This document shows, piece after piece, positions 4,836 through 59,570 of a DNA stretch of 64,000 nt. The stretch's first letter is position 1. Each line of letters begins with the position of its first letter. The DNA is from Candidatus Poribacteria bacterium (GTDB taxonomy: Bacteria; Poribacteria; WGA-4E; GCA-2687025), in contig OY762492.1 of assembly GCA_963665845.2 (NCBI GenBank), forward strand, positions 3,360,001 to 3,424,000, read 5' to 3'. The position numbers and the translations under genes are program-made. The notes beneath the pieces are model-generated. The model saw only the letters and a list, made by a program, of their open reading frames with translations, did no database searches and was not told the DNA's origin.

Positions 4836-5056
4836 GTACGCTTATACGGAGGTTTTCATTTTAACCCTAAAAGCGTCTGCGTCGCCGGTCGTCATTCCCG
4901 CGCAAGCGGGAATCCAGAGTCTACCCTTGCGGCTAAAACCCCCAGCCCCCTTTTCAAGGGGGGGAGTCCAGAAACCGCGCCCCAACCGCTGTTATTGGGC
5001 TATTCGTTCCCCGCTTCCGCGAGGACATGCATTCCCGCGCAAGCGGGAATCCAGAG
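4836..5056. repeat. Composite intergenic palindromic repeat cluster
   Basis: GTACGCTTATACGG at 4836; GTCATTCCCGCGCAAGCGGGAATCC at 4891 and a related copy at ~5030; CCCCCAGCCCCCTTTTCAAGGGGG at ~4939. Confidence 0.85.
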
Positions 5057-9850: not shown

Positions 9851-10015
9851 GATTCCCGCTTGCGCGGGAATGACGCCGGGCGGCAAGACGCCTAAGATTC
9901 CCGTTTTCACGGGAATGACGCCGGGCGGCGGCAAGACGCCTAAGATTCCCGTTTTCGCGGGAATGACGCCGGGCGGCGGCAAGACGCCTAAGATTTCCGC
10001 TTGCGCGGGAATGAC
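9851..10015. repeat. Four tandem REP-like palindromes (GATTCCC-N8-GGGAATGAC)
   Basis: Copies start at 9851, 9896, 9944, 9992 (period 45/48/48) with near-identical linker GCCGGGCGGC(GGC)AAGACGCCTAA. Confidence 0.9.
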
Positions 10016-48988: not shown

Positions 48989-50116
48989 TCAGGCGCGTTC
49001 CAGTTCCGTTTTGACAAGCGCCATATGCATCTTTCCCTCCCTGTCCATGCGCGTTCGGGCGTTGGCCGGGGCGTCCAGATCCATCATGAGCTGACTTCCG
49101 TCGATCCAGGTAACGCGCCGTTGAAACGCGCTGGAGGGCGGACCTTCCAGGGGGTGCGTCGGCATGACGCGGACGCCGTTGACCTCCGAAAAAACGCCCA
49201 GCTCAAACTCCGCCTCGATCAGCGCCGACGCCGCCTCCTCGCCCAGCGCGACAATCACCCGCGGCTGAATGCGCTCAATCTGCCGAAGCAGATACGGACG
49301 GCAACGCTCCGTCTCCCGCCAAAACGCGCGCCCGTCTGTCGACAAACGGCATTTTAAAAGGTATGCTACATACACATCCTCTCGGCGCAGGTCCGCCGCT
49401 GCGATCAGGCTTTCCAAGCGCGTTTTCGGCTCCGGCATCTGATACGGCTTCCCTTTTCGATCCTCCGCTCCGCCTGGCGCCAGCCCAATCAGCATGAGGT
49501 CGGCGTCCGGCTTGCCTTCTCCAAAAACGACATGCTTTCGTTCAAGATGAAGCCGGCAGCGCCGGCAGCCGCTCGCCTCTTCAGCCAGCGCGGACAGCTC
49601 CATGCCGGCAAACGAAATCTCGGCGTCGAGAGTAAAGGCGGAATCGCGCAGCGGAAAGGAGCGGTTTCGGAACGATTCAACATCGCCCTTGGCGTCCGCC
49701 GCGCCGATCATGCCTAAAGCCTGCGCGATCCATGTTAAATAGGAGCGCGCCAGCTCTTTGTCCATATCGCTGTCGCCGGGGTGGGCGGCGGCGTTTCGCG
49801 CCGAGCGGATCAGATAGGTCAAGCTTTGGAACATGCGGTCGGTTCCGAAATCGTTCTCAAACGCCTCGCGCCAGTAGGTTCGGACAATGTCAGGAAAGTC
49901 GCCGATGTCGAGCGCGGCGCCGACATTTCCGCCGTTTTCCAGCAGCGTTCGGTTGAATTGGCTCGCGCGGTCTCGATGCATCGCGTCGCTGACGAGCGTT
50001 TGCAGGTTGCCGCGCCCCTGGATTCGCTTCAGCGCTTTTGGAATAAAGACGCGCATCTCGTCTCGGTACACAGTTAGAGCGTCGTTTAGAACGGCGATGT
50101 TGGGCGTTTGCGGCAT
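48989..50116 (-). CDS. Swt1-like HEPN domain fused to family-4 uracil-DNA glycosylase-like domain
   Basis: N-terminal [18 protein letters not shown]...[10 protein letters not shown] (RxxxxH); C-terminal CRRCRL...[42 protein letters not shown]; ATG at 50116 with GGAG RBS. Confidence 0.8.
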
Positions 50117-50196
50117 GGCTCTCTCCAAGAGCGTCGCGGCATTTGCCCATTCTAACACAGACGCCCCGCCCGTTCGATGCGCCTTCCGTCGGGTTC

Positions 50197-50712
50197 GTCA
50201 TTCCCGCCCTTGCCCTGCGGTAAAACGCGCGGGAATCTTAGGCGCTGCCGAAACCGCCCGTGTTCGCCCCAGGCGTCCATCCTACCCGCCGTCATTCCCG
50301 CCCTTGCGGTAAAACATGCGGGAATCCAGAGTCTACCCGAAACCGTCCGCGTTCACCTCAAACGTCCATACCGCCCGCCGCGCGGAAACCCCCAGCCCCC
50401 TTTCAAGGGGAGTTTAGCCGCCGCCGCTGTTGTCGTCTGAACTAGGATTGCCAAGATTGAAAAGATTGCCAAGAAATTTCCGTGCGCCGCTATCTTGGCA
50501 ATCTTAGTAATCCTTTCATCCTAGTTCAAACCGACTTCAGCCCGCGCGCCCTTTAAGATTCCCGTTTTCACGGGAATGACGGGGAGGAGGCGCGGGAATG
50601 ACCCCCGTTTTCACGGGGGCAGGCTATGAGGCGCGGGAATGACCCCCGTTTTCACGGGGGCAGGCTATGAGGCGCGGGAATGCATATCCTCGTGAAAACG
50701 GGGAAGCGGGGG
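50197..50712. repeat. Large composite repeat cluster
   Basis: Expanded REPs at 50197 and 50291, G-rich palindrome at ~50388, GAACTAGGATT...CTAGTTC at 50439-50527, REP at ~50557, two 41-bp tandem units containing ACCCCCGTTTTCACGGGGGCAGGCTATGAGGCGCGGGAATG. Confidence 0.9.
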
Positions 50713-50769
50713 ATGAGTCGCCGGCGCGGGCATGATTGCCGGACGCGCACGGCTTTTGCGCCGCCTTGC

Positions 50770-51708
50770 TTAAAAGAGAAGGTCCCGTTTTGGAACGGCG
50801 CCGTTCTCTGACGGAGCGGAGGCTGACATTTCGGCAACGCCCGCCGCTTCGTTCGATGTATCCGACTCTTCCGACTCTTTATGAGACGCGGGCGTTTCGG
50901 GAGCCGTTTCTTTCGGTTTAGAAACGCCGCCTGTTTCCTCCTGCGCGCGCAGTATCTGGCGCGTCTTCGCCGCCAGCTCCTTAAACAGACCGGCGTCCCT
51001 TGACGCCGCCGCCAGCTCCGCCGCGAGCTGCGCCCAGTGATCCTCGCGCATGTCGTTGCGCGATTCCACATGAAAACGGCGCCGCACATAGTTCCAAAAA
51101 TCGTCCTGCGACACGCCTTCGTTTTCAAAACGGCTGCGCAGCTTTTGCGCCGCCGCAAACGCCGCCTTCTGATGATTCGTGATCTTGTCGTTCAACGGTT
51201 TCTTCGGCGCCGTCTGAACCGGACGGCTCCCCCGCCCCTTCGCCTGACGGTAAAAATCGATCACCTCCAGAATGACCGGCGTCGGCAGCAGCTGCTTGAC
51301 CGCGTTGCGCTGCGCCTTGTGAACCGCCTTCGTGAACGCATACGGATCGTCGCGCCCGCCCTGTTTTTTCGGCTGTTCGCAGGCGCCGTAGCGGGAGTTG
51401 CCCGTCAGCGTGTCGGTCGCCTTCACTACGGCGATCCAGGAGTTCTCCCGATCCTCGTACTCCGCCTCTTCGACCTGGATGCCGCCGCGCCGGTTCGCCG
51501 CCTCGTTGATGCCCGCCAGCGTCAGCGCCTCCACCGTCCTGCCGCTCTGTCGAAACGAGTACACATAGGCGTCGATCGCCTGCCCCGTCATCATCTGGAC
51601 AATCTCCTGATCGTCCCGCTGATCAATCTGATCAGGGCTTTCGATGACGACGACCGCGTCTGCTGTTTCGTTGCCGCGCGTTTTGTCGTTCCGTTCCTCT
51701 ATGCTCAT
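50770..51708 (-). CDS. Hypothetical protein, possible Rad52/Sak-like ssDNA-annealing fold
   Basis: Real-looking ORF with RBS; AVVKATDTLTGNSRYG...AFTKAVHKAQRNA pattern; low-complexity acidic tail. Confidence 0.5.
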   Translation of the reverse strand: MSIEERNDKTRGNETADAVVVIESPDQIDQRDDQEIVQMMTGQAIDAYVYSFRQSGRTVEALTLAGINEAANRRGGIQVEEAEYEDRENSWIAVVKATDTLTGNSRYGACEQPKKQGGRDDPYAFTKAVHKAQRNAVKQLLPTPVILEVIDFYRQAKGRGSRPVQTAPKKPLNDKITNHQKAAFAAAQKLRSRFENEGVSQDDFWNYVRRRFHVESRNDMREDHWAQLAAELAAASRDAGLFKELAAKTRQILRAQEETGGVSKPKETAPETPASHKESEESDTSNEAAGVAEMSASAPSENGAVPKRDLLF

Positions 51709-51777
51709 CGGCTTTCTCCCGCGTTTGTCTGATTGTTCATGGGGCGCCTGCCGTTTTTGTCAAGGGTCAATGCTGTT

Positions 51778-52656
51778 TTATTGCAAATTAATCAAAAACG
51801 AAGCCGCCGCTGCCGCCCAAAAGACAACGCCGGCGACAATCAGATCGTAAGCGAGCCAGAACGGAGCGCCTCCCGGAGCGTCCATCCCGCCGACCTCCTC
51901 CCAAAACCGCAGCAGCAGTTTGGAACGGACAAGCCGCCGGTATCCGATCCGCCGCGCCGCAAGCCATGGAACGATCATCGCCAACGCCAAGAGAAGGACA
52001 GCGACGAAGATCAGCTTATCCTCCATTGGCCGCTCATCCGCCAACTCTGTTGTTAAAACGAGGATCAGAAAGGCAAAGACAACGCATCCGACAAGCGCTG
52101 TCAACAGCGCCGCCCAGTAACGCCAGCTTTTTCGGTTCGGCGTCGAAATGTCCGCATGCGGCTCGGCGATGCGCAGCTTCGCTATTCCGACGCTCATCAG
52201 AAAAAGCGCGCCGTACGCCCAGGCGTCCCAGCGCCAGATGAAAACGTTGTCCGAGGCTCTAAGCGGGCTGATATATGCCGTTTCAAGATAAGCAATCAGC
52301 GCCGCAGGAAAGCAAGCGGCGCCGAAAGCCGCCAGTATGCGTCCAAACCAGAAGGAGGCGCCTTGGCGCGGGGTTTCGGGCATGTTCCCGCCGTTTTCAG
52401 ACGGCTGCGCAAACGCGGCGAGCGCCTCGCCCAGCTCCGCCGCTTTTAACCCGATGCGCAGCTTCGCCGCGCCGAGGCTCAACAGCAAGCCGCCCAAAAC
52501 AAGCCAGCCGATCCCGCCATACCGGACGCCGCCCAGCAGCAGATAGAGCAAGACAACGCCGACCGCCGCCAAAAGCATGAGCCAGCGCAGGCGGTCTAAA
52601 TGGCGGTAAGTTTCATACCGCTGCTTGTAGATTTCCAGATCGTTTTGATCCGCCAT
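51778..52656 (-). CDS. Multi-pass membrane hypothetical protein with internal repeats
   Basis: About 7 TMs; AKLRI occurs twice plus ARRI; N-terminal EIYKQRYETYRHLDRLRW. Confidence 0.7.
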   Translation of the reverse strand: MADQNDLEIYKQRYETYRHLDRLRWLMLLAAVGVVLLYLLLGGVRYGGIGWLVLGGLLLSLGAAKLRIGLKAAELGEALAAFAQPSENGGNMPETPRQGASFWFGRILAAFGAACFPAALIAYLETAYISPLRASDNVFIWRWDAWAYGALFLMSVGIAKLRIAEPHADISTPNRKSWRYWAALLTALVGCVVFAFLILVLTTELADERPMEDKLIFVAVLLLALAMIVPWLAARRIGYRRLVRSKLLLRFWEEVGGMDAPGGAPFWLAYDLIVAGVVFWAAAAASFLINLQ

Positions 52657-52787
52657 CTATTCGCCCTCCGCTCCTTTGCCGCGTTTGATTAGCATACTTC
52701 AGGGCTGCGGGCGCGTCAAGAACCGCTCTCGTTTTTCAACGCCGCAGCCGCCATTTCATCTGCGGAGGCTGCCGCGGAAGAAGCGAT

Positions 52788-52914
52788 TTGATTTTTTCAA
52801 CGTCTTCAGGTATATTAATTACGGGGCGTATCATGCGCCTCAACTGAAGACGATGTCCGGGCGAAATCGACATGAGCCGACGCTCTGTGTACCGGTTTCG
52901 TTGAAAGGAATGGT
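52788..52914 (+). promoter_or_regulatory. Putative promoter plus structured leader of Na/Pi symporter 1
   Basis: TTGATT-N17-TATATT; three hairpin stems conserved in the copy at 54325-54450. Confidence 0.6.
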
Positions 52915-54003
52915 GTGAAGAATTTACGCCCCATTGGCGGATTCGTTCTCGGTCTAGCGCTTTTCTTCCTGAGCATTGAGCTGATGGGAGACGCTTTTGA
53001 ACTTTTCAGCGAAGGCGCCGCAGACCATCTTCTCAAGAGCGCGAGCAATCCGTTTGTCGGACTGTTTATCGGGATACTTTCTACGGCGCTGGCGCAAAGC
53101 TCCGTTGCTGTCATTTCTGTAACGGTTGCCGCCGTCGGGAGAGGATCCATCCCCGCCGCTGTCGCCATTCCGATCGTTATGGGCGCCAACATCGGCACGA
53201 CCGTCACGAACACGCTCGTTTCGCTCGCGCATATCCGCAACCGGGAGGAGTTCAAGCGCGCCATCGGCGGAGCGACCGTCCATGACTTTTTCAATATCAT
53301 TGTCGTCGCGATCCTTTTCCCGCTGGAGCTGATAACCGGCTTCATGGATCACATCTCCCGTTACTTAGCCGAAGCGTTTCAAAACTTCGGCGGTCTCGAT
53401 ATTGCCAGCCCGCTCCAGCAGTACTTCACCGGCCCTGTCAGCAAGACTTTTATCGAGTATGCCGGCAGAGAAGGGTGGATCGTTCTGATCATCGCCGCCG
53501 CGTTCCTTTTTTCCGGGCTGTTCATCCTTGTTCGCTCGCTCAAGAGGCTGGCGCTGGATCAAGCGGACAACGTGATCGAGAGGTATATCTTCAAGGCAAG
53601 TTCCGGCAGCTTGCTCTTCGGCGTTGTCATCACGATCCTTGTTCAAAGCAGCTCCATCACCACCTCGCTTGCGGTTCCGTTTGTGGCGACGGGCGCGCTC
53701 TCGGTCGCGCAGATCTTTCCCTACGTCTGCGGCGCCAACATCGGCATCACCTTCACGGCGCTTTTAGCCGCTTTAGCCGTCGGGAGCACCGAGGCGCTGG
53801 CAGTCGCGCTTGTGAATTTCTTTTTCAACGTGATAGGCGTTCTCATTGTGTTTCCGATCAAGCAGCTGCGGAAGATTCCGATCTGGCTGGCGGAGCGGTT
53901 CGGCGAGCTCGCCAGCCGATACAGGCTGCTCGCCATCGCTTATATGGTGGTGCTGTTTTACGCTATTCCGCTCGCGGTCATCATGCTCAGTCGGCTGTTT
54001 TAA
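52915..54003 (+). CDS. Na+/phosphate symporter (NptA/SLC34-like)
   Basis: LAQSS, MGANIGTTVTN, GATVHDFFN, LVQSSSITTS, GANIGITFTA. Confidence 0.92.
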   Translation: MKNLRPIGGFVLGLALFFLSIELMGDAFELFSEGAADHLLKSASNPFVGLFIGILSTALAQSSVAVISVTVAAVGRGSIPAAVAIPIVMGANIGTTVTNTLVSLAHIRNREEFKRAIGGATVHDFFNIIVVAILFPLELITGFMDHISRYLAEAFQNFGGLDIASPLQQYFTGPVSKTFIEYAGREGWIVLIIAAAFLFSGLFILVRSLKRLALDQADNVIERYIFKASSGSLLFGVVITILVQSSSITTSLAVPFVATGALSVAQIFPYVCGANIGITFTALLAALAVGSTEALAVALVNFFFNVIGVLIVFPIKQLRKIPIWLAERFGELASRYRLLAIAYMVVLFYAIPLAVIMLSRLF

Positions 54004-54017
54004 AGCGGCGGGCGGTT

Positions 54018-54313
54018 GAGTTGGGCATGCCTGCGCGTCATTCCCGCCGTTGCGGTAAACGCGCGGGAATCCAGAGCCGCCGAAGACGACGTCCGCATTC
54101 GCCGAAACCGTCATTCTACCGGGCGTCATTCCCGCGCAAGCGGGAATCTTAAGGCTCCGCGCCCTTTAAACCCCCCTAGCCCCCCTTTTCAAGGGGGGAA
54201 TCCAGAGGCCCCGCCCCAATCCCGTCATTCCCGCGCAAGCGGGAATCCAGAGGCGGCGCAGACGACGTCCGCGTTCACAACCAGAATTGTCCCAACTTTA
54301 AGGATAAGCTCTG
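54018..54313. repeat. Composite repeat cluster between the symporter paralogues
   Basis: REPs at ~54037, ~54125, ~54224; G-rich palindrome at ~54171; AGTTGGGCA on the left and TGTCCCAACT at 54288 on the right. Confidence 0.85.
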
Positions 54314-54324
54314 TCAAAAAACAT

Positions 54325-54450
54325 TCGATTCTTCCATCGCTTTCGGGTATGGTACTGATCGGCGTTTCAAACGCCTCAATTGAAAGCGAGATCCGGACGA
54401 AATCGACATGAACCGCCGTTTTGTGTACTGGTTTCGTTGAAAGGAATGGT
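54325..54450 (+). promoter_or_regulatory. Putative promoter plus structured leader of Na/Pi symporter 2
   Basis: TCGATT-N17-TATGGT; stems show compensatory changes relative to copy 1. Confidence 0.55.
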
Positions 54451-55587
54451 GTGAAGACTTTACGCTCCATTGGCGGACTCGTTCTTGGGCTGGCGCTTTT
54501 CTTTATCAGCATTGAGCTGCTGGGCGACGCGTTCAAACTTTTCGGCAAAGAAAAAGCGAATGAGTTTTTGAGCGCCGCCAATAACCCGTTTATCGGCTTA
54601 TTTATCGGCATTCTTGCCACGACGCTCGCTCAAAGCTCCTCCACCATCACCTCCTCGACGGTCATTCTTGTCGGAACGGGAGCCATTCCCGCCGCTGTCG
54701 CCCATCCGATCGTCATGGGCGCCAACATCGGCACGACCGTCACGAACACGATCGTCTCGCTCGCCCATATCGGCGACCGGGAGGAGTTCAAGCGCGCTAT
54801 CGGCGGCGCGACCGTCCATGACTTTTTCAACATCATTGTCGTCGCGATCCTTTTCCCGCTGGAGATGTTGACAGGCTTCATGGACAAAATCTCCCATGTT
54901 TGCGCCGGCGCGTTTCAATCGTTCGGCGGGAGGGAGATGGGCAGTCCGCTCAAAGATTATTTCACCGGACCCGTCAGCGATTTCATGATCAACCGAGTGG
55001 ACGGATTTGCGCCTGCATCGATCAAAACATGGCTGGTTCTGATCATCGCCGGCGCGTTTCTCTTCTTTGGGCTGCGCATTCTGGTTCGCTCGCTCAAGGC
55101 GCTCGCCCTTGATCAGGCGGACAATGCGATCGAGAAATATATCTTCAAAGCGAGCTGGGCAAGCCTGATCTTCGGCGTCGGCGTCACCATTCTTGTTCAA
55201 AGCAGCTCCGTCACCACCTCGCTTGCGGTTCCGTTTGTGGCGACGGGCGCGCTCACCGTCGCGCAGATCTTCCCTTACATCTGCGGCGCCAACATCGGCA
55301 CCACCTGCACCGCGCTGCTGACCGCTTTCTATTTAGTCAGTACGGGCGCAGACCTGTCCGATCCTGAAAAGCTAGCCGTGCTGGTCGTCGCGCTGGGGCA
55401 TTTCTTTTTCAACCTGACCGGCGTTCTGATTGTGTTTCCGTTTCAGCGGCTGCGGAATATCCCTGTCTGGCTGGCGGAGCGGTTCGGCGAGATCGCCAGC
55501 CGATACAGGACGCTTGCCATCGTCTATACGCTGGCGCTGTTTTACGCCGCGCCGCTCGGCGTCATTTTGATTGCGGGTCTCTTTTAA
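54451..55587 (+). CDS. Na+/phosphate symporter, tandem paralogue
   Basis: LAQSSSTITS, MGANIGTTVTN, LVQSSSVTTS, GANIGTT; GTG start equivalent to the paralogue. Confidence 0.92.
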   Translation: MKTLRSIGGLVLGLALFFISIELLGDAFKLFGKEKANEFLSAANNPFIGLFIGILATTLAQSSSTITSSTVILVGTGAIPAAVAHPIVMGANIGTTVTNTIVSLAHIGDREEFKRAIGGATVHDFFNIIVVAILFPLEMLTGFMDKISHVCAGAFQSFGGREMGSPLKDYFTGPVSDFMINRVDGFAPASIKTWLVLIIAGAFLFFGLRILVRSLKALALDQADNAIEKYIFKASWASLIFGVGVTILVQSSSVTTSLAVPFVATGALTVAQIFPYICGANIGTTCTALLTAFYLVSTGADLSDPEKLAVLVVALGHFFFNLTGVLIVFPFQRLRNIPVWLAERFGEIASRYRTLAIVYTLALFYAAPLGVILIAGLF

Positions 55588-55706
55588 AACTTAAAGAAAA
55601 TGACCAGCTCTTGCAGCAGTCGTCGTCAGAACGTCCCGTAGAGGCGCCGTCTGTCCGTTGCGCCGCCGCCTGCTTTGCGGTAAAATGATGCAAGCGAGGG
55701 GCATGT

Positions 55707-58700
55707 ATGGACGTCAAAGCGTTTCACGTCACCATTTCGCTGATGCTCGCGGCGGCTGCCTGGGTCGGGTGCTGGTTCATCGGCATAACGTATCTGTCGC
55801 GCGGATGGCGCGAGCGGGACAAGCGCGCCCGCGCTGTCGGGCTGCTCTGGTTCCTCATACCGACGCTGATCATGGCGGTTTGGACCTGGCCGCACATCGC
55901 CTATCTATGGACCGAGTATCAGTGGCGCGCCCATTTTTCCAACCCTGACGGCGACCTTGCCAGCTACGAAAAGGTGTTTGAGCGCATGCTTGCCATGCGG
56001 TGGCAGGTGTTCGGCATCTATTTCGGGGTCGGCTTTGCGTTTCTGTTTCTGAATCTGCTCATTGCCCGTTTCGTCTGCCGGCTGCGCGGCGACATCGAAC
56101 ACTGGGCGGTGACGCAATCGAGACTGATGCATCGGCTGCTGACAGCGGTATGTTTGGCGGCGTCCGGCTTGCTGGCGTTCATTGTCATGTGGCAGTGGGA
56201 GGCGTACTGGAACGCGGAAGCGTACGACAAGGAGGGGGTCGGCCGCGTTCAGGCGATTGTTCAACATCAACCCGCCCTTTTTGGGACGCCCGACCATCCC
56301 GCGACCGCCGCGCCATGGACAGACGCGTCGGCGCTGGAGACCTTCACCGAGGAGATGGAGGCGGCGCTGGAGGCGCGGTTCGCCGACAATCCGAACGTTC
56401 AGTTTCTCCGCATCGAAGGGGAGGAGAAGACGGGAGCGAAACAGGCTCCTGAACCGCCGCACTACTTCCTGCGCGGGTTTTTGTCGGTTGAGCCGGACGG
56501 CAAATCGTTTGGCAAATCGGTTTCTCTGGAGCTGACAGGCGGAACCGTCCTTAAGCGCGACGACACGATGCCTAGAAACTCTGAAGACAGCCACAAAAAG
56601 AGAGTTTCATTCGAAGCGGCGGCGACTGAAGACGAAGCGGCGATGACTGAAGAAGAGAGAAGAGCCGCCGACTTAGCCAGTTTGACCGAGCAGGCGGCGA
56701 AGTCGGATTATCTGAAGGACGGGTTCTGCGACCCGATTTTTCATAAAAATGTCGGCTATTACCTGTTCAGATTTCCGCGAACGCGCTATGAAAGCATGTG
56801 GATTCTGGCGGTTCTCTTCGCGGCGCTGGGGCTGATCGCATATCAGTACCGCTACTACTACCATCGAGACGCGAATTCGATGCCGCGCGCGTTGAGAGGC
56901 GTCGCGGCGCAGGGGACGCTGCTATGGATTGCGATACTGGGCGCGTCGGCTTGGAAGGCGGATGTGGACCGCCAGTCGATGCTGTATCTCGACCCGATGA
57001 TCAATTTGAACTTTTCCGATACGAAGTTGAGCGTCGACTACTTTTACATACTCCAGAACGTTCTGACGGAGTACTATATTGGGGCGTTGGCGGTTCTGGC
57101 GTTGGCGCTGCTGGTGAATGTGTTTTGGCAAAATCGGCGGCTGTGGTGGTGGGTCGCGGTTGGATGGGCGTCCTCGTATCTGCTGATCCTCTGGGCGTCT
57201 CCGACGGTTTACAACATTTTTTGGATTAAACCGAACCTGCGGAATTATGACCGTCCGTATCTTGAACGGCACATCGCCATGACGCGGCGCGGTTACAAGT
57301 TGGACGCGATTCAAAAAAACACGCTGATCCAGGAAACGTCCACCATGCAGGATGTTTTAGCGCGTCCTGAAGTCCTGAATAACGTGCAGCTTTGGAACCG
57401 CGTCACCGCCTGGAAATGGATCGAATCCGAGCATGTGTTCAATTTGCTGTCGCACACATTCCACAAGTATATGGACGTGGATCGGTACCATGTGGACGGC
57501 GAAATGCGGCAGCTGCTGCTTGGCGTTCGGGAGTTGGATCGGAAGTTCGTATCTGGGCGCGACTGGTGGACAAAGCGGCTGAAATATACGCATGGGTACG
57601 GGGTTGTCGCCTCTCCCGTCAATGAAACGGACAAGGATCAACCTAGAATTTGGACAGATAAAACGTTCGACATTCGCCGCCCTGAAGTGTATTTCGGCGA
57701 ACTGAACAACGACTATGTTTTTGTGGGAGCGTCAAGGGACGAAATCACCCTCAACATCACGCAATCAAATGAAGCGAAACCGTCGACGACACGGTACTCC
57801 GGACGCGGGGGCGTCGAGATCGGGCAGGGACTGGAGCGCTGGGCTTGGGCGACTCGGCTGTTGAGACCGATTCGCATCGGATTGTCCGGTGAGCTGGACG
57901 CCAACAGCCGCGTCTTGCTCCATCGGCATGTCAAAAGTAGAGCTGAGATACTGGCGCCGTTTCTCAAATTTGATAAAGACCCGTATATTGTGATCGGAGA
58001 AGAGTCCGGGAAATTATGGTGGGTGATCGACGTCTATACAACGACCGGAAGGTACCCGTATTCCGAAAAAAGACGCGCCTTGAACATTGAAGGGAAGCCG
58101 ATCCGCGATCTCGGCGGCGGCGTTTATTCGGAGCCGGATTTCAAGGGGTTCAATTACATACGCAACTCCGCCGTGGCTGTCGTGGATCCGTACAACGGCG
58201 ACGTCTTCTTTTACGTCACCGACTCGCACGATCCGCTCATCAAGATGTACCAGCATCATTTTGGCGCGCTGTTTCATCCGATAGAGAAGATGCCGAGAGA
58301 AATCAAAACGCACCTCCGTTACCCCGACTATCTGCTTTGGACGCAGGCGTATATGTACGGGCGGTACCATGTGGACGACGCGGAAACTTTCCGAGACGGC
58401 GCCCAGCAATGGGGCGTTCCGTTTGAATATATCTACAATCCGGATCGGAAGGTAGACGGAAAGTCGAAGCCTGATAACGAGAAGCAAGCGATGATGCCGT
58501 ATTATACGGTGTTGACGCTTCCAGGATCGGACAAGCCGGAATTTGTCAGCGTACTTCCGATGGCTCCTAAGAAGGAAGCGTCTCGCAATTTGCTTTCCGC
58601 ATGGCTTGTGGCGCGCTGCGACGGGGAAAATTACGGCGATGTCGTCTGTTATACGCTTCCCGTGTCGCCCGAAGAAAAATTGGACGGCCCCTTCGGCATT

Positions 58701-59570
58701 GAACATCGAATCGACACCGAAATGAGTAAGGTGTTCGAGCTTTGGGGCACTGATAAAGCGAAAGTTATTCGAGGCAGCCTGCTTCTGCTGCCAATACAGA
58801 CCAGGAGCGGCAATACGGCGCTGATCTATGTAGAGCCTGTTTATTCGCAGCCGTTGACCGAAAACGAAAGCGAAGGCGAACCGAAGAAAGGCAAACCGAC
58901 ATTAAAAGCGGTGTTTGTCAGCGCCGGCGGCGAGATCGCATACGACGACAGCTTTCAAAAGGCGCTTGACAAGTCGCTTCGGGCGGGGCTGAACGCCTCC
59001 ATCGCCGGCGTCGTTTCTGACGAGGAGGGAAATCCGATCAACGGCGTCGGGGTTCAGATCGCCGATAAAGAAAACGCGATCATGGACGCTGGGTTGTTCA
59101 CCAATCGGGACGGCGAATTTGAGTTTAATCAGCTGGAGGCGGGGGAAAATTACACACTCCATCTGGGCAAATCGGGTCTTGAGGCGAAAAGCGTACCGAT
59201 CACAACCCTGGTCGGCGAAGAAACGATCCAAAACGTGACGATGTCGCCGCCCGCGCCTGAAAAGCAGGAACGGACGCTCGCCGACATGATTCTCTCGGCG
59301 AAGCAGCAGCTAGACCTGTACAAAGACTCCAAAGCTGGCTTGACGACGCTTGAAAGCGATCTGAACCAGCTGATCCAGCGCGCCCGTTCAAAGAACGACC
59401 TTGTCCTTCAAGATCTGGCGATGTCGGCGAACGCGGCGCTTTCCAACTACAAACGAAGCAAACGAGAGGGGCTGACCGTCGACGCGGGGGAGCAGCGCGC
59501 GCAGCTCGAAGCGGACATACAGGCGATCTTCAAGCTAGCAACCGAAGCGGCGGCGAATGGCCAACCCTGA
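55707..59570 (+). CDS. UPF0182-family membrane protein with extra domains
   Basis: DVDRY, YTHGYGVV, RPEVYFGE, APFLKFDKDPY, YPYS, NYIRNS, HLRYP, IYVEPVY; C-terminal SIAGVVSDEEGNPINGV...TNRDGEFEF (carboxypeptidase-regulatory-like). Confidence 0.88.
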   Translation: MDVKAFHVTISLMLAAAAWVGCWFIGITYLSRGWRERDKRARAVGLLWFLIPTLIMAVWTWPHIAYLWTEYQWRAHFSNPDGDLASYEKVFERMLAMRWQVFGIYFGVGFAFLFLNLLIARFVCRLRGDIEHWAVTQSRLMHRLLTAVCLAASGLLAFIVMWQWEAYWNAEAYDKEGVGRVQAIVQHQPALFGTPDHPATAAPWTDASALETFTEEMEAALEARFADNPNVQFLRIEGEEKTGAKQAPEPPHYFLRGFLSVEPDGKSFGKSVSLELTGGTVLKRDDTMPRNSEDSHKKRVSFEAAATEDEAAMTEEERRAADLASLTEQAAKSDYLKDGFCDPIFHKNVGYYLFRFPRTRYESMWILAVLFAALGLIAYQYRYYYHRDANSMPRALRGVAAQGTLLWIAILGASAWKADVDRQSMLYLDPMINLNFSDTKLSVDYFYILQNVLTEYYIGALAVLALALLVNVFWQNRRLWWWVAVGWASSYLLILWASPTVYNIFWIKPNLRNYDRPYLERHIAMTRRGYKLDAIQKNTLIQETSTMQDVLARPEVLNNVQLWNRVTAWKWIESEHVFNLLSHTFHKYMDVDRYHVDGEMRQLLLGVRELDRKFVSGRDWWTKRLKYTHGYGVVASPVNETDKDQPRIWTDKTFDIRRPEVYFGELNNDYVFVGASRDEITLNITQSNEAKPSTTRYSGRGGVEIGQGLERWAWATRLLRPIRIGLSGELDANSRVLLHRHVKSRAEILAPFLKFDKDPYIVIGEESGKLWWVIDVYTTTGRYPYSEKRRALNIEGKPIRDLGGGVYSEPDFKGFNYIRNSAVAVVDPYNGDVFFYVTDSHDPLIKMYQHHFGALFHPIEKMPREIKTHLRYPDYLLWTQAYMYGRYHVDDAETFRDGAQQWGVPFEYIYNPDRKVDGKSKPDNEKQAMMPYYTVLTLPGSDKPEFVSVLPMAPKKEASRNLLSAWLVARCDGENYGDVVCYTLPVSPEEKLDGPFGIEHRIDTEMSKVFELWGTDKAKVIRGSLLLLPIQTRSGNTALIYVEPVYSQPLTENESEGEPKKGKPTLKAVFVSAGGEIAYDDSFQKALDKSLRAGLNASIAGVVSDEEGNPINGVGVQIADKENAIMDAGLFTNRDGEFEFNQLEAGENYTLHLGKSGLEAKSVPITTLVGEETIQNVTMSPPAPEKQERTLADMILSAKQQLDLYKDSKAGLTTLESDLNQLIQRARSKNDLVLQDLAMSANAALSNYKRSKREGLTVDAGEQRAQLEADIQAIFKLATEAAANGQP

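Follow-up and report, generated by a model that had tools for sequence, protein, structure and literature searches.

The 5' untranslated region (UTR) of E. coli ompA-type messengers acts as a stabiliser and combines a 5'-terminal stem-loop with a second stem-loop beside the ribosome-binding site. Among ion-responsive leaders, the Na+ riboswitch is listed in Rfam as the DUF1646 motif and the Li+ riboswitch as the nhaA-I motif. A structured leader of comparable position lies upstream of each of two tandem Na+/phosphate (Na/Pi) symporter genes in a 64,000-nt stretch of DNA from Candidatus Poribacteria bacterium (contig OY762492.1, positions 3,360,001 to 3,424,000). This stretch, counted from its first letter, is called the window; the leaders, hairpins and symporter genes are on its + strand. 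A preliminary description, made from the letters of the window, had found three stems (P1, P2 and P3) in each leader and had proposed an unannotated RNA, shaped by covariation, that responds to Na+ or phosphate. The reading tentatively favored here, with a probability of roughly 0.45, is a different one: each gene would have its own sigma-70-type promoter-like site and a structured 5' UTR of ~92 nt that stabilises the mRNA or tunes its translation, specific to one genus and without a ligand sensor.

The two genes are short paralogs without a PhoU domain, and their proteins are 72% identical. Symporter gene 1 (52915-54003) starts with GTG at 52915-17, is preceded by the Shine-Dalgarno (SD) sequence GAAAGGA at 52903-09, and encodes a 362-aa Na_Pi_cotrans protein whose N-terminus, VKNLRPIGG, is also found in the ortholog. 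Gene 2 (54451-55587; 378 aa) starts with GTG at 54451 and has the same SD sequence at 54439-45. Both exceed the curated cutoffs for PF02690 (132.7 and 138.9 bits vs a cutoff of 29.1; E 1.2e-38 for gene 1 in Pfam) and for the NCBIfam model NF037997 (105.4 and 87.8 bits vs a cutoff of 50), and on these scores they are members of the Na/Pi symporter family. A related stretch of ~125 nt stands upstream of each gene, with a mean column identity of 84% between the two. When leader 1 was compared by BLAST with the whole genome, just these two copies were found; nothing further scored better than E = 0.15, over 17 nt at most. The tandem pair is also present with both leaders in a sister species (G001), which gives four genome copies of the leader (two species x two paralogs). 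About nine further variants were found in sponge-metagenome contigs (Logan contigs from four runs); these were phased indirectly by contig depth, and contigs of depth 3-10 may hold errors. The leaders are a tandem duplication, and hence much of their common shape is common ancestry. The background against which conservation was judged is the identity at fourfold-degenerate sites, 0.72-0.80 in all six comparisons of the four gene copies, a neutral rate that may itself be lowered by constraint on those sites. The last 61 nt of the leader, start codon included, are 53-56/61 identical in all six pairs.

Each leader opens with a promoter-like site. In copy 1 (52788-52816), the hexamers TTGATT (-35, 52788-93) and TATATT (-10, 52811-16) are separated by a 17-nt spacer. 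A promoter scan found this site with 9/12 matches, one of two sites in 1.9 kb where 0.9 were expected; the second serves the divergent upstream gene. The aligned site in copy 2 (54325-54353) has TCGATT at 54325-30, a 17-nt spacer and TATGGT at 54348-53; it has 8/12 matches and was not listed by the scan. All four genome copies keep T(T/C)GATT, the 17-nt spacer and TATnnT, with variation at the fourth and fifth -10 positions, and three L1-type loose ends of metagenome contigs read TATATT, TATATT and TATGAT. Free middle positions within TATnnT are the usual conservation pattern of a -10 box. With hexamers spaced within the 16-18 nt of sigma-70-type promoters and the conserved positions kept, the site is a candidate promoter. 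Similarity to the sister genome begins, by BLAST, exactly at 52788, the first position of the copy 1 -35 hexamer, and in copy 2 at 54319, 6 nt before the -35 hexamer; no BLAST match to 52400-52787 was found in the G001 locus. Since similarity begins at the promoter-like site, the functional and duplicated unit would seem to start there. A Pho box at the -35 hexamer was considered and, on a comparison with the consensus by eye, dropped. Judged from the promoter-like site, the transcription start site (TSS) of copy 1 would lie near 52821-52824, ~7 nt after the -10 hexamer. With such a start, the RNA would begin at the base of P2 and the 5' arm of P1 would not be transcribed.

P2 is a GC-rich hairpin (52823-52841 in copy 1, core GGCGTA-TCA-TGCGCC; 54361-54375 in copy 2, GGCGTT-TCA-AACGCC) that begins 7 nt (copy 1) or 8 nt (copy 2) after the -10 hexamer and would thus stand at the transcript's 5' end. 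Its four G-C pairs are invariant in the four genome copies, and one pair changes from A-U to U-A. P3, a 39-nt hairpin (52862-52900 in copy 1; 54398-54436 in copy 2), consists of an 8-bp lower stem, an AC internal loop, a 4-bp middle stem, a bulged U and a 4-bp apical stem closed by the loop CGAC, as drawn for copy 1. It ends 2 nt before the SD sequence in both window copies. The preliminary description had placed all three stems correctly, sequences included, and had recognised the position of P3 just ahead of GAAAGGA.

An identical P3 fold is predicted in all four genome copies, at -8.9 kcal/mol (window copy 2) to -15.3 kcal/mol, and 12 of its 16 pairs never vary among them. Between the window paralogs, the lower and middle stems are identical at 25/26 positions vs 0.72 at fourfold sites (binomial P = 0.002); across the four copies these stems are invariant except for a single C/T (54429), which turns a G-C pair into G.U. 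Changes in the metagenome variants can be one-sided and still preserve pairing: 54431 G>A and 54423 G>A each convert U.G to U-A. At the apical pair 54412/54419 the variants have A-U, G.U or G-C, and in the copy 2 type of G001 the apical hairpin is retained through a register shift. Conserved G-U pairs, which would be C.A on the other strand, argue for an RNA of the + strand and not for a DNA palindrome or an antisense RNA; a minus-strand RNA was dropped on this ground. Neither P2 nor P3 is followed by a U-tract, so the leader is not an attenuator, and the intrinsic terminator considered for these hairpins was also rejected. The sole contact that could mask the SD sequence is a 3-bp pairing of UCC upstream of P3 with the GGA of the SD, possible in three of the four copies.

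A 5' UTR with these parts might work as follows. Transcription would start ~7 nt after the -10 hexamer of each gene's own promoter-like site. P2, at the very 5' end of the ~92-nt UTR, could shield the mRNA 5' end from decay, and P3 could hold the SD region in a fixed context or be bound by a trans-acting factor. P1 would lie outside the promoter-initiated transcript and could form just in read-through RNA that enters from upstream. The likely role of the UTR is to set mRNA stability or translation efficiency, or to offer a site for a trans-acting factor; ligand sensing by the leader is unlikely.

The copy 1 arms of P1, CGTCTTCAG (52801-09) and CTGAAGACG (52844-52), form a perfect 9-bp inverted repeat; those of copy 2, CGCTTTCGG (54338-46) and TTGAAAGCG (54380-88), form nine pairs, two of them G-U. 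Between the copies two pairs are altered on both sides and two are turned into G-U, as the preliminary description reported. It had also cautioned that the 5' arm lies in the spacer of a plausible N17 promoter, and the site found by the scan, TTGATT-N17-TATATT, bears this out. The primary transcript probably lacks the 5' arm, which is situated between the two promoter hexamers; in copy 1 the two arms enclose the -10 hexamer, the presumed TSS and P2. Folded together, P1 and P2 reach -23.7 kcal/mol (z -6.7) in copy 1 and -15.1 kcal/mol (z -2.1) in copy 2. In the four genome copies, 83% of P1 cells are paired and all six unpaired cells are in G001, where each copy retains 6/9 pairs and the predicted fold of copy 1 is without P1. 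The inner pairs TTCRG/CTGAA are kept in all four. Thus, the statement that both leaders keep their three stems can be carried over to the four copies for P2 and P3 and not for P1. Ten distinct sequences with both arms known, genome copies and Logan contig variants together, give the same picture: nine pairs are formed in four (both window copies, X5 record 4 and X9 record 15), eight in three, each with a C.A mismatch, seven in one and six in two. The 3' arm is CTGAAAACG in most relatives, which have A where the window 3' arms have a pairing G. The C that this G faces is the fourth base of the copy's own 5' arm in window copy 1 and the third in the copy 2 type. P1 is not an established stem; it could be a feature of read-through RNA, an operator or chance.

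Several of these observations weigh against a stabilising 5' UTR that begins at P2. The position-specific G fits look like selection for pairing in P1, at least in the window lineage, and the promoter spacer has a conserved core, TTC(G/A)G, which is the inner part of P1 and for which promoter function gives no explanation. Leader 2 is not unusually stable: its z is +0.17 or +0.38, and that of its P3 is -1.2. Outside P1, two-sided changes are limited to a single pair in P3 and a single pair in P2. Finally, the metagenome variants 54429 T>A and 54408 A>T each break a P3 pair.

The alternative that fares best, although unlikely, is that the stems have no structural function and were inherited from a fairly recent tandem duplication, with selection acting only on the promoter, the SD and the start context. 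The low divergence speaks for it, for many matches would be inherited when even fourfold sites are 0.72-0.80 identical, and P1 decays in the sister species. So do the statistics of covariation and folding. Among the 31 pairs, four change on both sides across the four copies, a number reached by 32/500 shuffles, and the covariation measures as a set are matched by 24-64/500 shuffles; the covariation from which the preliminary description had deduced selection on RNA structure does not bear that weight. Over stretches of 126-127 nt that include the 5' arm of P1, leader 1 has a folding z of -3.25 and leader 2, at +0.17, folds no better than its shuffles; P3 alone has z values of -3.3, -1.2, -1.8 and -1.1 in the four copies. 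What inheritance explains poorly is the near-invariance of the lower and middle stems of P3 against the fourfold background, the survival of the apical hairpin through the register shift in G001, and the divergence beyond detection, between the two species, of the DNA upstream of the -35 hexamer.

The original idea of a riboswitch-like sensor, in which P1, P2 and P3 form one ligand-binding fold that controls symporter translation by Na+, phosphate or another solute, is now improbable. The Rfam collection (4227 models) was searched by cmscan at an E-value threshold of 10 with positions 50000-58000 and with each leader alone. Leader 1 had no match at E <= 10; leader 2 matched just CRISPR-DR6 (14.2 bits) and isrC (11.8 bits), which are noise vs gathering scores of 39. 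The Na+ and Li+ riboswitch models matched neither leader at E <= 10. The preliminary description had suggested this check, and its view of an unannotated, conserved leader ahead of both symporters survives it: no known family removes the novelty, and any sensor here would be new. Sensing itself is another matter, since nothing points to a response to Na+ or phosphate and no Rfam model of any kind gave a meaningful match. In 40 homolog loci searched at Rfam gathering thresholds, no cis-regulatory RNA placed to control the symporter was found; the matches were confined to tRNAs, a tmRNA, an Acido-Lenti-1 RNA and one opposite-strand cobalamin riboswitch (L040).

A covariance model built from P2 and P3 (R1) was used to look for further copies. 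In a phylum-wide sample of 151 genomes that contains G000, it recovered the four known copies at 113-119 bits and no other credible match; the next best, in G008 at 23.6 bits, was rejected because it lies inside a 504-aa open reading frame (ORF) on the opposite strand. Nothing new was found in all eight genomes of the order. Homologous symporters of 32-62% identity were covered by 78 genome-contig loci, with no R1 match upstream of the symporter, and by 42 metagenome loci, where the best score, 13.5 bits, fell inside a coding region. In the three other symporter-bearing genomes of the phylum (176 searched), the model run with filters off reached 10.9 bits at best, ~420 nt upstream. A protein scan of metagenome contigs found no close symporter relative (best full-length match 50%) and added no leaders. 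In all, 123 loci of more distant homologs were covered, and none has a copy of the leader. Because R1 finds copies in one genus only and the homolog loci are without it, the leader is, within these samples, genus-restricted and tied to one gene family. A limited literature search turned up nothing on leaders of Na/Pi symporters or on regulation in Poribacteria.

For the sensor, then, there are three stems with some two-sided changes, strong conservation from P2 to the SD, the UCC that can pair with the SD in three copies, and the two position-specific A-to-G fits that the window genome shows in its P1 3' arms. Against it are the location of the P1 5' arm in a promoter spacer, the 6/9 pairs of both G001 copies, and a P1-P2 junction in which TATnnT alone stays constant, as in a -10 box and unlike a binding pocket. 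A riboswitch would generally show an aptamer in diverse taxa and significant covariation in its stems; this leader is confined to one genus, upstream of one gene family, and its covariation is of the order seen in shuffles.

Hardly any better is the prospect that P1 is real and confined to read-through RNA, which for copy 2 would come from gene 1, the P1-P2 domain marking or processing polycistronic transcripts as an RNase site or insulator. For copy 2, no terminator-like site was found by scan between gene 1 and leader 2, and in the sister genome only ~55 nt separate the gene 1 stop from the copy 2 -35 hexamer. Apart from the invariant inner pairs, three changes of the window lineage make P1 pair better: G.U became A-U, and at two different positions C.A became C-G. 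In copy 1, read-through is harder to picture, with a divergent gene upstream and no other promoter-like site on the + strand found in 52600-52788. Furthermore, the palindromic hairpins between the window genes, described below, may stop or trim read-through, and the outer pairs of P1 fail in 6/10 sequences.

P1 could also act as DNA. A repressor bound to both arms of the inverted repeat, the first within the spacer and the second at about +22 to +30, would occlude the promoter. The arms do flank the -10 hexamer and the presumed TSS, 43 bp apart from centre to centre or about four helical turns, and such a site would account for the spacer core TTC(G/A)G, which a promoter does not need. It is nevertheless very unlikely: the half-sites of a dimeric operator are not usually as far apart as the 34 bp seen here, copy 2 has G-U at two arm positions, where DNA would be mismatched, and the whole-genome BLAST search offered no further site. 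Nor is there an adjacent regulator gene, the two upstream ORFs being without Pfam or NCBIfam match. Equally slim is the chance of a more elaborate scheme in which the P1 helix straddles its own promoter, so that read-through and promoter-initiated mRNAs fold differently and the two transcript classes are told apart; a fold of P1, P2 and P3 that senses ions or phosphate, peculiar to this genus, could come on top.

The weakest candidate is control by a leader peptide, in which translation of a short upstream ORF (uORF) within P3 would open the hairpin and be coupled to the symporter start, 10 nt after the uORF stop. The uORF has 10 codons in copy 1 (52872-52904, MSRRSVYRFR*) and in copy 2 (54408-54440, MNRRFVYWFR*), and its TGA overlaps the SD of the symporter. 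It is open, in frame and free of indels in all four genome copies; codon 3 varies at the third position only (CGA, CGC, CGT, CGT), codon 4 mostly so (CGC, CGT, CGA, one TGC), and the C-terminal VY(W/R)FR is conserved. Yet three of ~9 metagenome variants break it (TGG>TGA at 54431, codon 8; ATG>TTG at 54408; and a loose end without the T of ATG), so that it is not conserved as a coding frame in relatives, and synonymous changes are absent from the six 3' codons of the four genome copies, which fits constraint on RNA better. Together, the broken variants and the absent synonymous changes make constraint on the peptide unlikely. The variable codons coincide with the hairpin loop, the sole SD-like sequence (GGA/GGG) precedes the ATG by 10 nt, and P3 holds the ATG itself in a paired state. 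A second, two-codon frame (ATG-GTG-TGA, 52910-18) was dropped, being absent in G001 copy 1.

The symporters themselves are patchily distributed. The short form without PhoU occurs in 5/176 genomes of the phylum at E <= 1e-40, and the next relatives, at 40-50% identity, belong to Acidobacteriota, Planctomycetota, Bacteroidota and other mostly marine metagenome-assembled genomes. This patchy spread, with relatives in other phyla, is compatible with lateral acquisition by the genus. The nearest homolog outside the genus (G011, 55% identity) is the sole symporter homolog of its genome and is without the leader. It shares 14 nt with the end of a sigma-54-dependent response-regulator gene (L011:111-2559; domains Response_reg, Sigma54_activat and HTH_8), and this overlap suggests that the symporter is controlled in another way there, through a protein.

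Between the two duplication units, the window genome has an insert of its own, a spacer of ~275 nt (54044-54318, + strand) filled with palindromes resembling repetitive extragenic palindromic (REP) elements. The sister genome aligns to 54043 and resumes at 54319 with ~10 nt between, and one metagenome contig joins 54003 to 54319 without the spacer. The 24-nt REP-like palindrome GTCATTCCCGCGCAAGCGGGAATC has 15 copies in the window at <=3 mismatches vs none expected. Two are in the spacer, at 54125 and 54224, and 13 are elsewhere, for example at 4891, 9851-10015, 15631, 22145, 38943, 43060 and 50557. The summed contig depth over the spacer in sponge metagenomes is ~130,000, which suggests a highly repeated element in those communities. 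A run-rich hairpin (54168-54200; six C, TTTTCAA, six G), preceded by another C-run, stands between the REP-like copies.

Going upstream, synteny with G001 ends precisely at the copy 1 -35 hexamer (52788 in the window; position 2875 of L036, the G001 locus). Upstream of the break, the window has a divergent 292-aa membrane-like ORF (51778-52656) with no Pfam or NCBIfam match and no BLAST match in the G001 locus, which has instead a 228-aa ORF and a GlnE-like gene. Further upstream, on the minus strand, is a 389-aa ORF (48989-50158) with an N-terminal Swt1-like HEPN match (E 4.7e-5, below the Pfam cutoff) and a uracil-DNA glycosylase superfamily domain. The symporters are followed directly by a 1287-aa ORF (55707-59570) that combines a UPF0182 membrane-protein domain with a C-terminal CarboxypepD_reg-like domain; in G001 a UPF0182 gene is syntenic.

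Poribacteria-like sponge symbionts are uncultured, and the leader, if functional, would be among the first cis-acting mRNA elements described for them. The transporters that it precedes are relevant to how the sponge holobiont handles phosphate. For now, it is a small 5' UTR element, confined to one genus and weakly supported by statistics, marked as a candidate for future metatranscriptomes and genomes. The negative result also counts: there is no sign here of a new, widespread class of Na+ or phosphate riboswitch.

Set against the described systems, the leader shares with uORF coupling and attenuation systems a short ORF within a hairpin and a stop codon that overlaps the SD of the main gene; unlike in those systems, its uORF is broken in three metagenome variants, has no well-placed SD and is conserved at the nucleotide and not the peptide level. 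With the Na+ and Li+ riboswitches it has in common a cis leader upstream of an ion-coupled transporter, but it is without their Rfam match, their wide phylogenetic spread and their conserved multi-stem junction. With the ompA 5' UTR it would share the layout: P2 would be near the 5' end, a single-stranded linker follows, P3 ends 2 nt before the SD, and neither a terminator nor an anti-SD switch is present. The two are unrelated in sequence, the 5' end of the symporter leader is deduced from a promoter-like site, and the leader belongs to one uncultured genus only. Thus, the leader matches no known RNA family, yet it is of a familiar kind, a lineage-specific structured 5' UTR, with one curious feature of its own, the P1 repeat that straddles the promoter.

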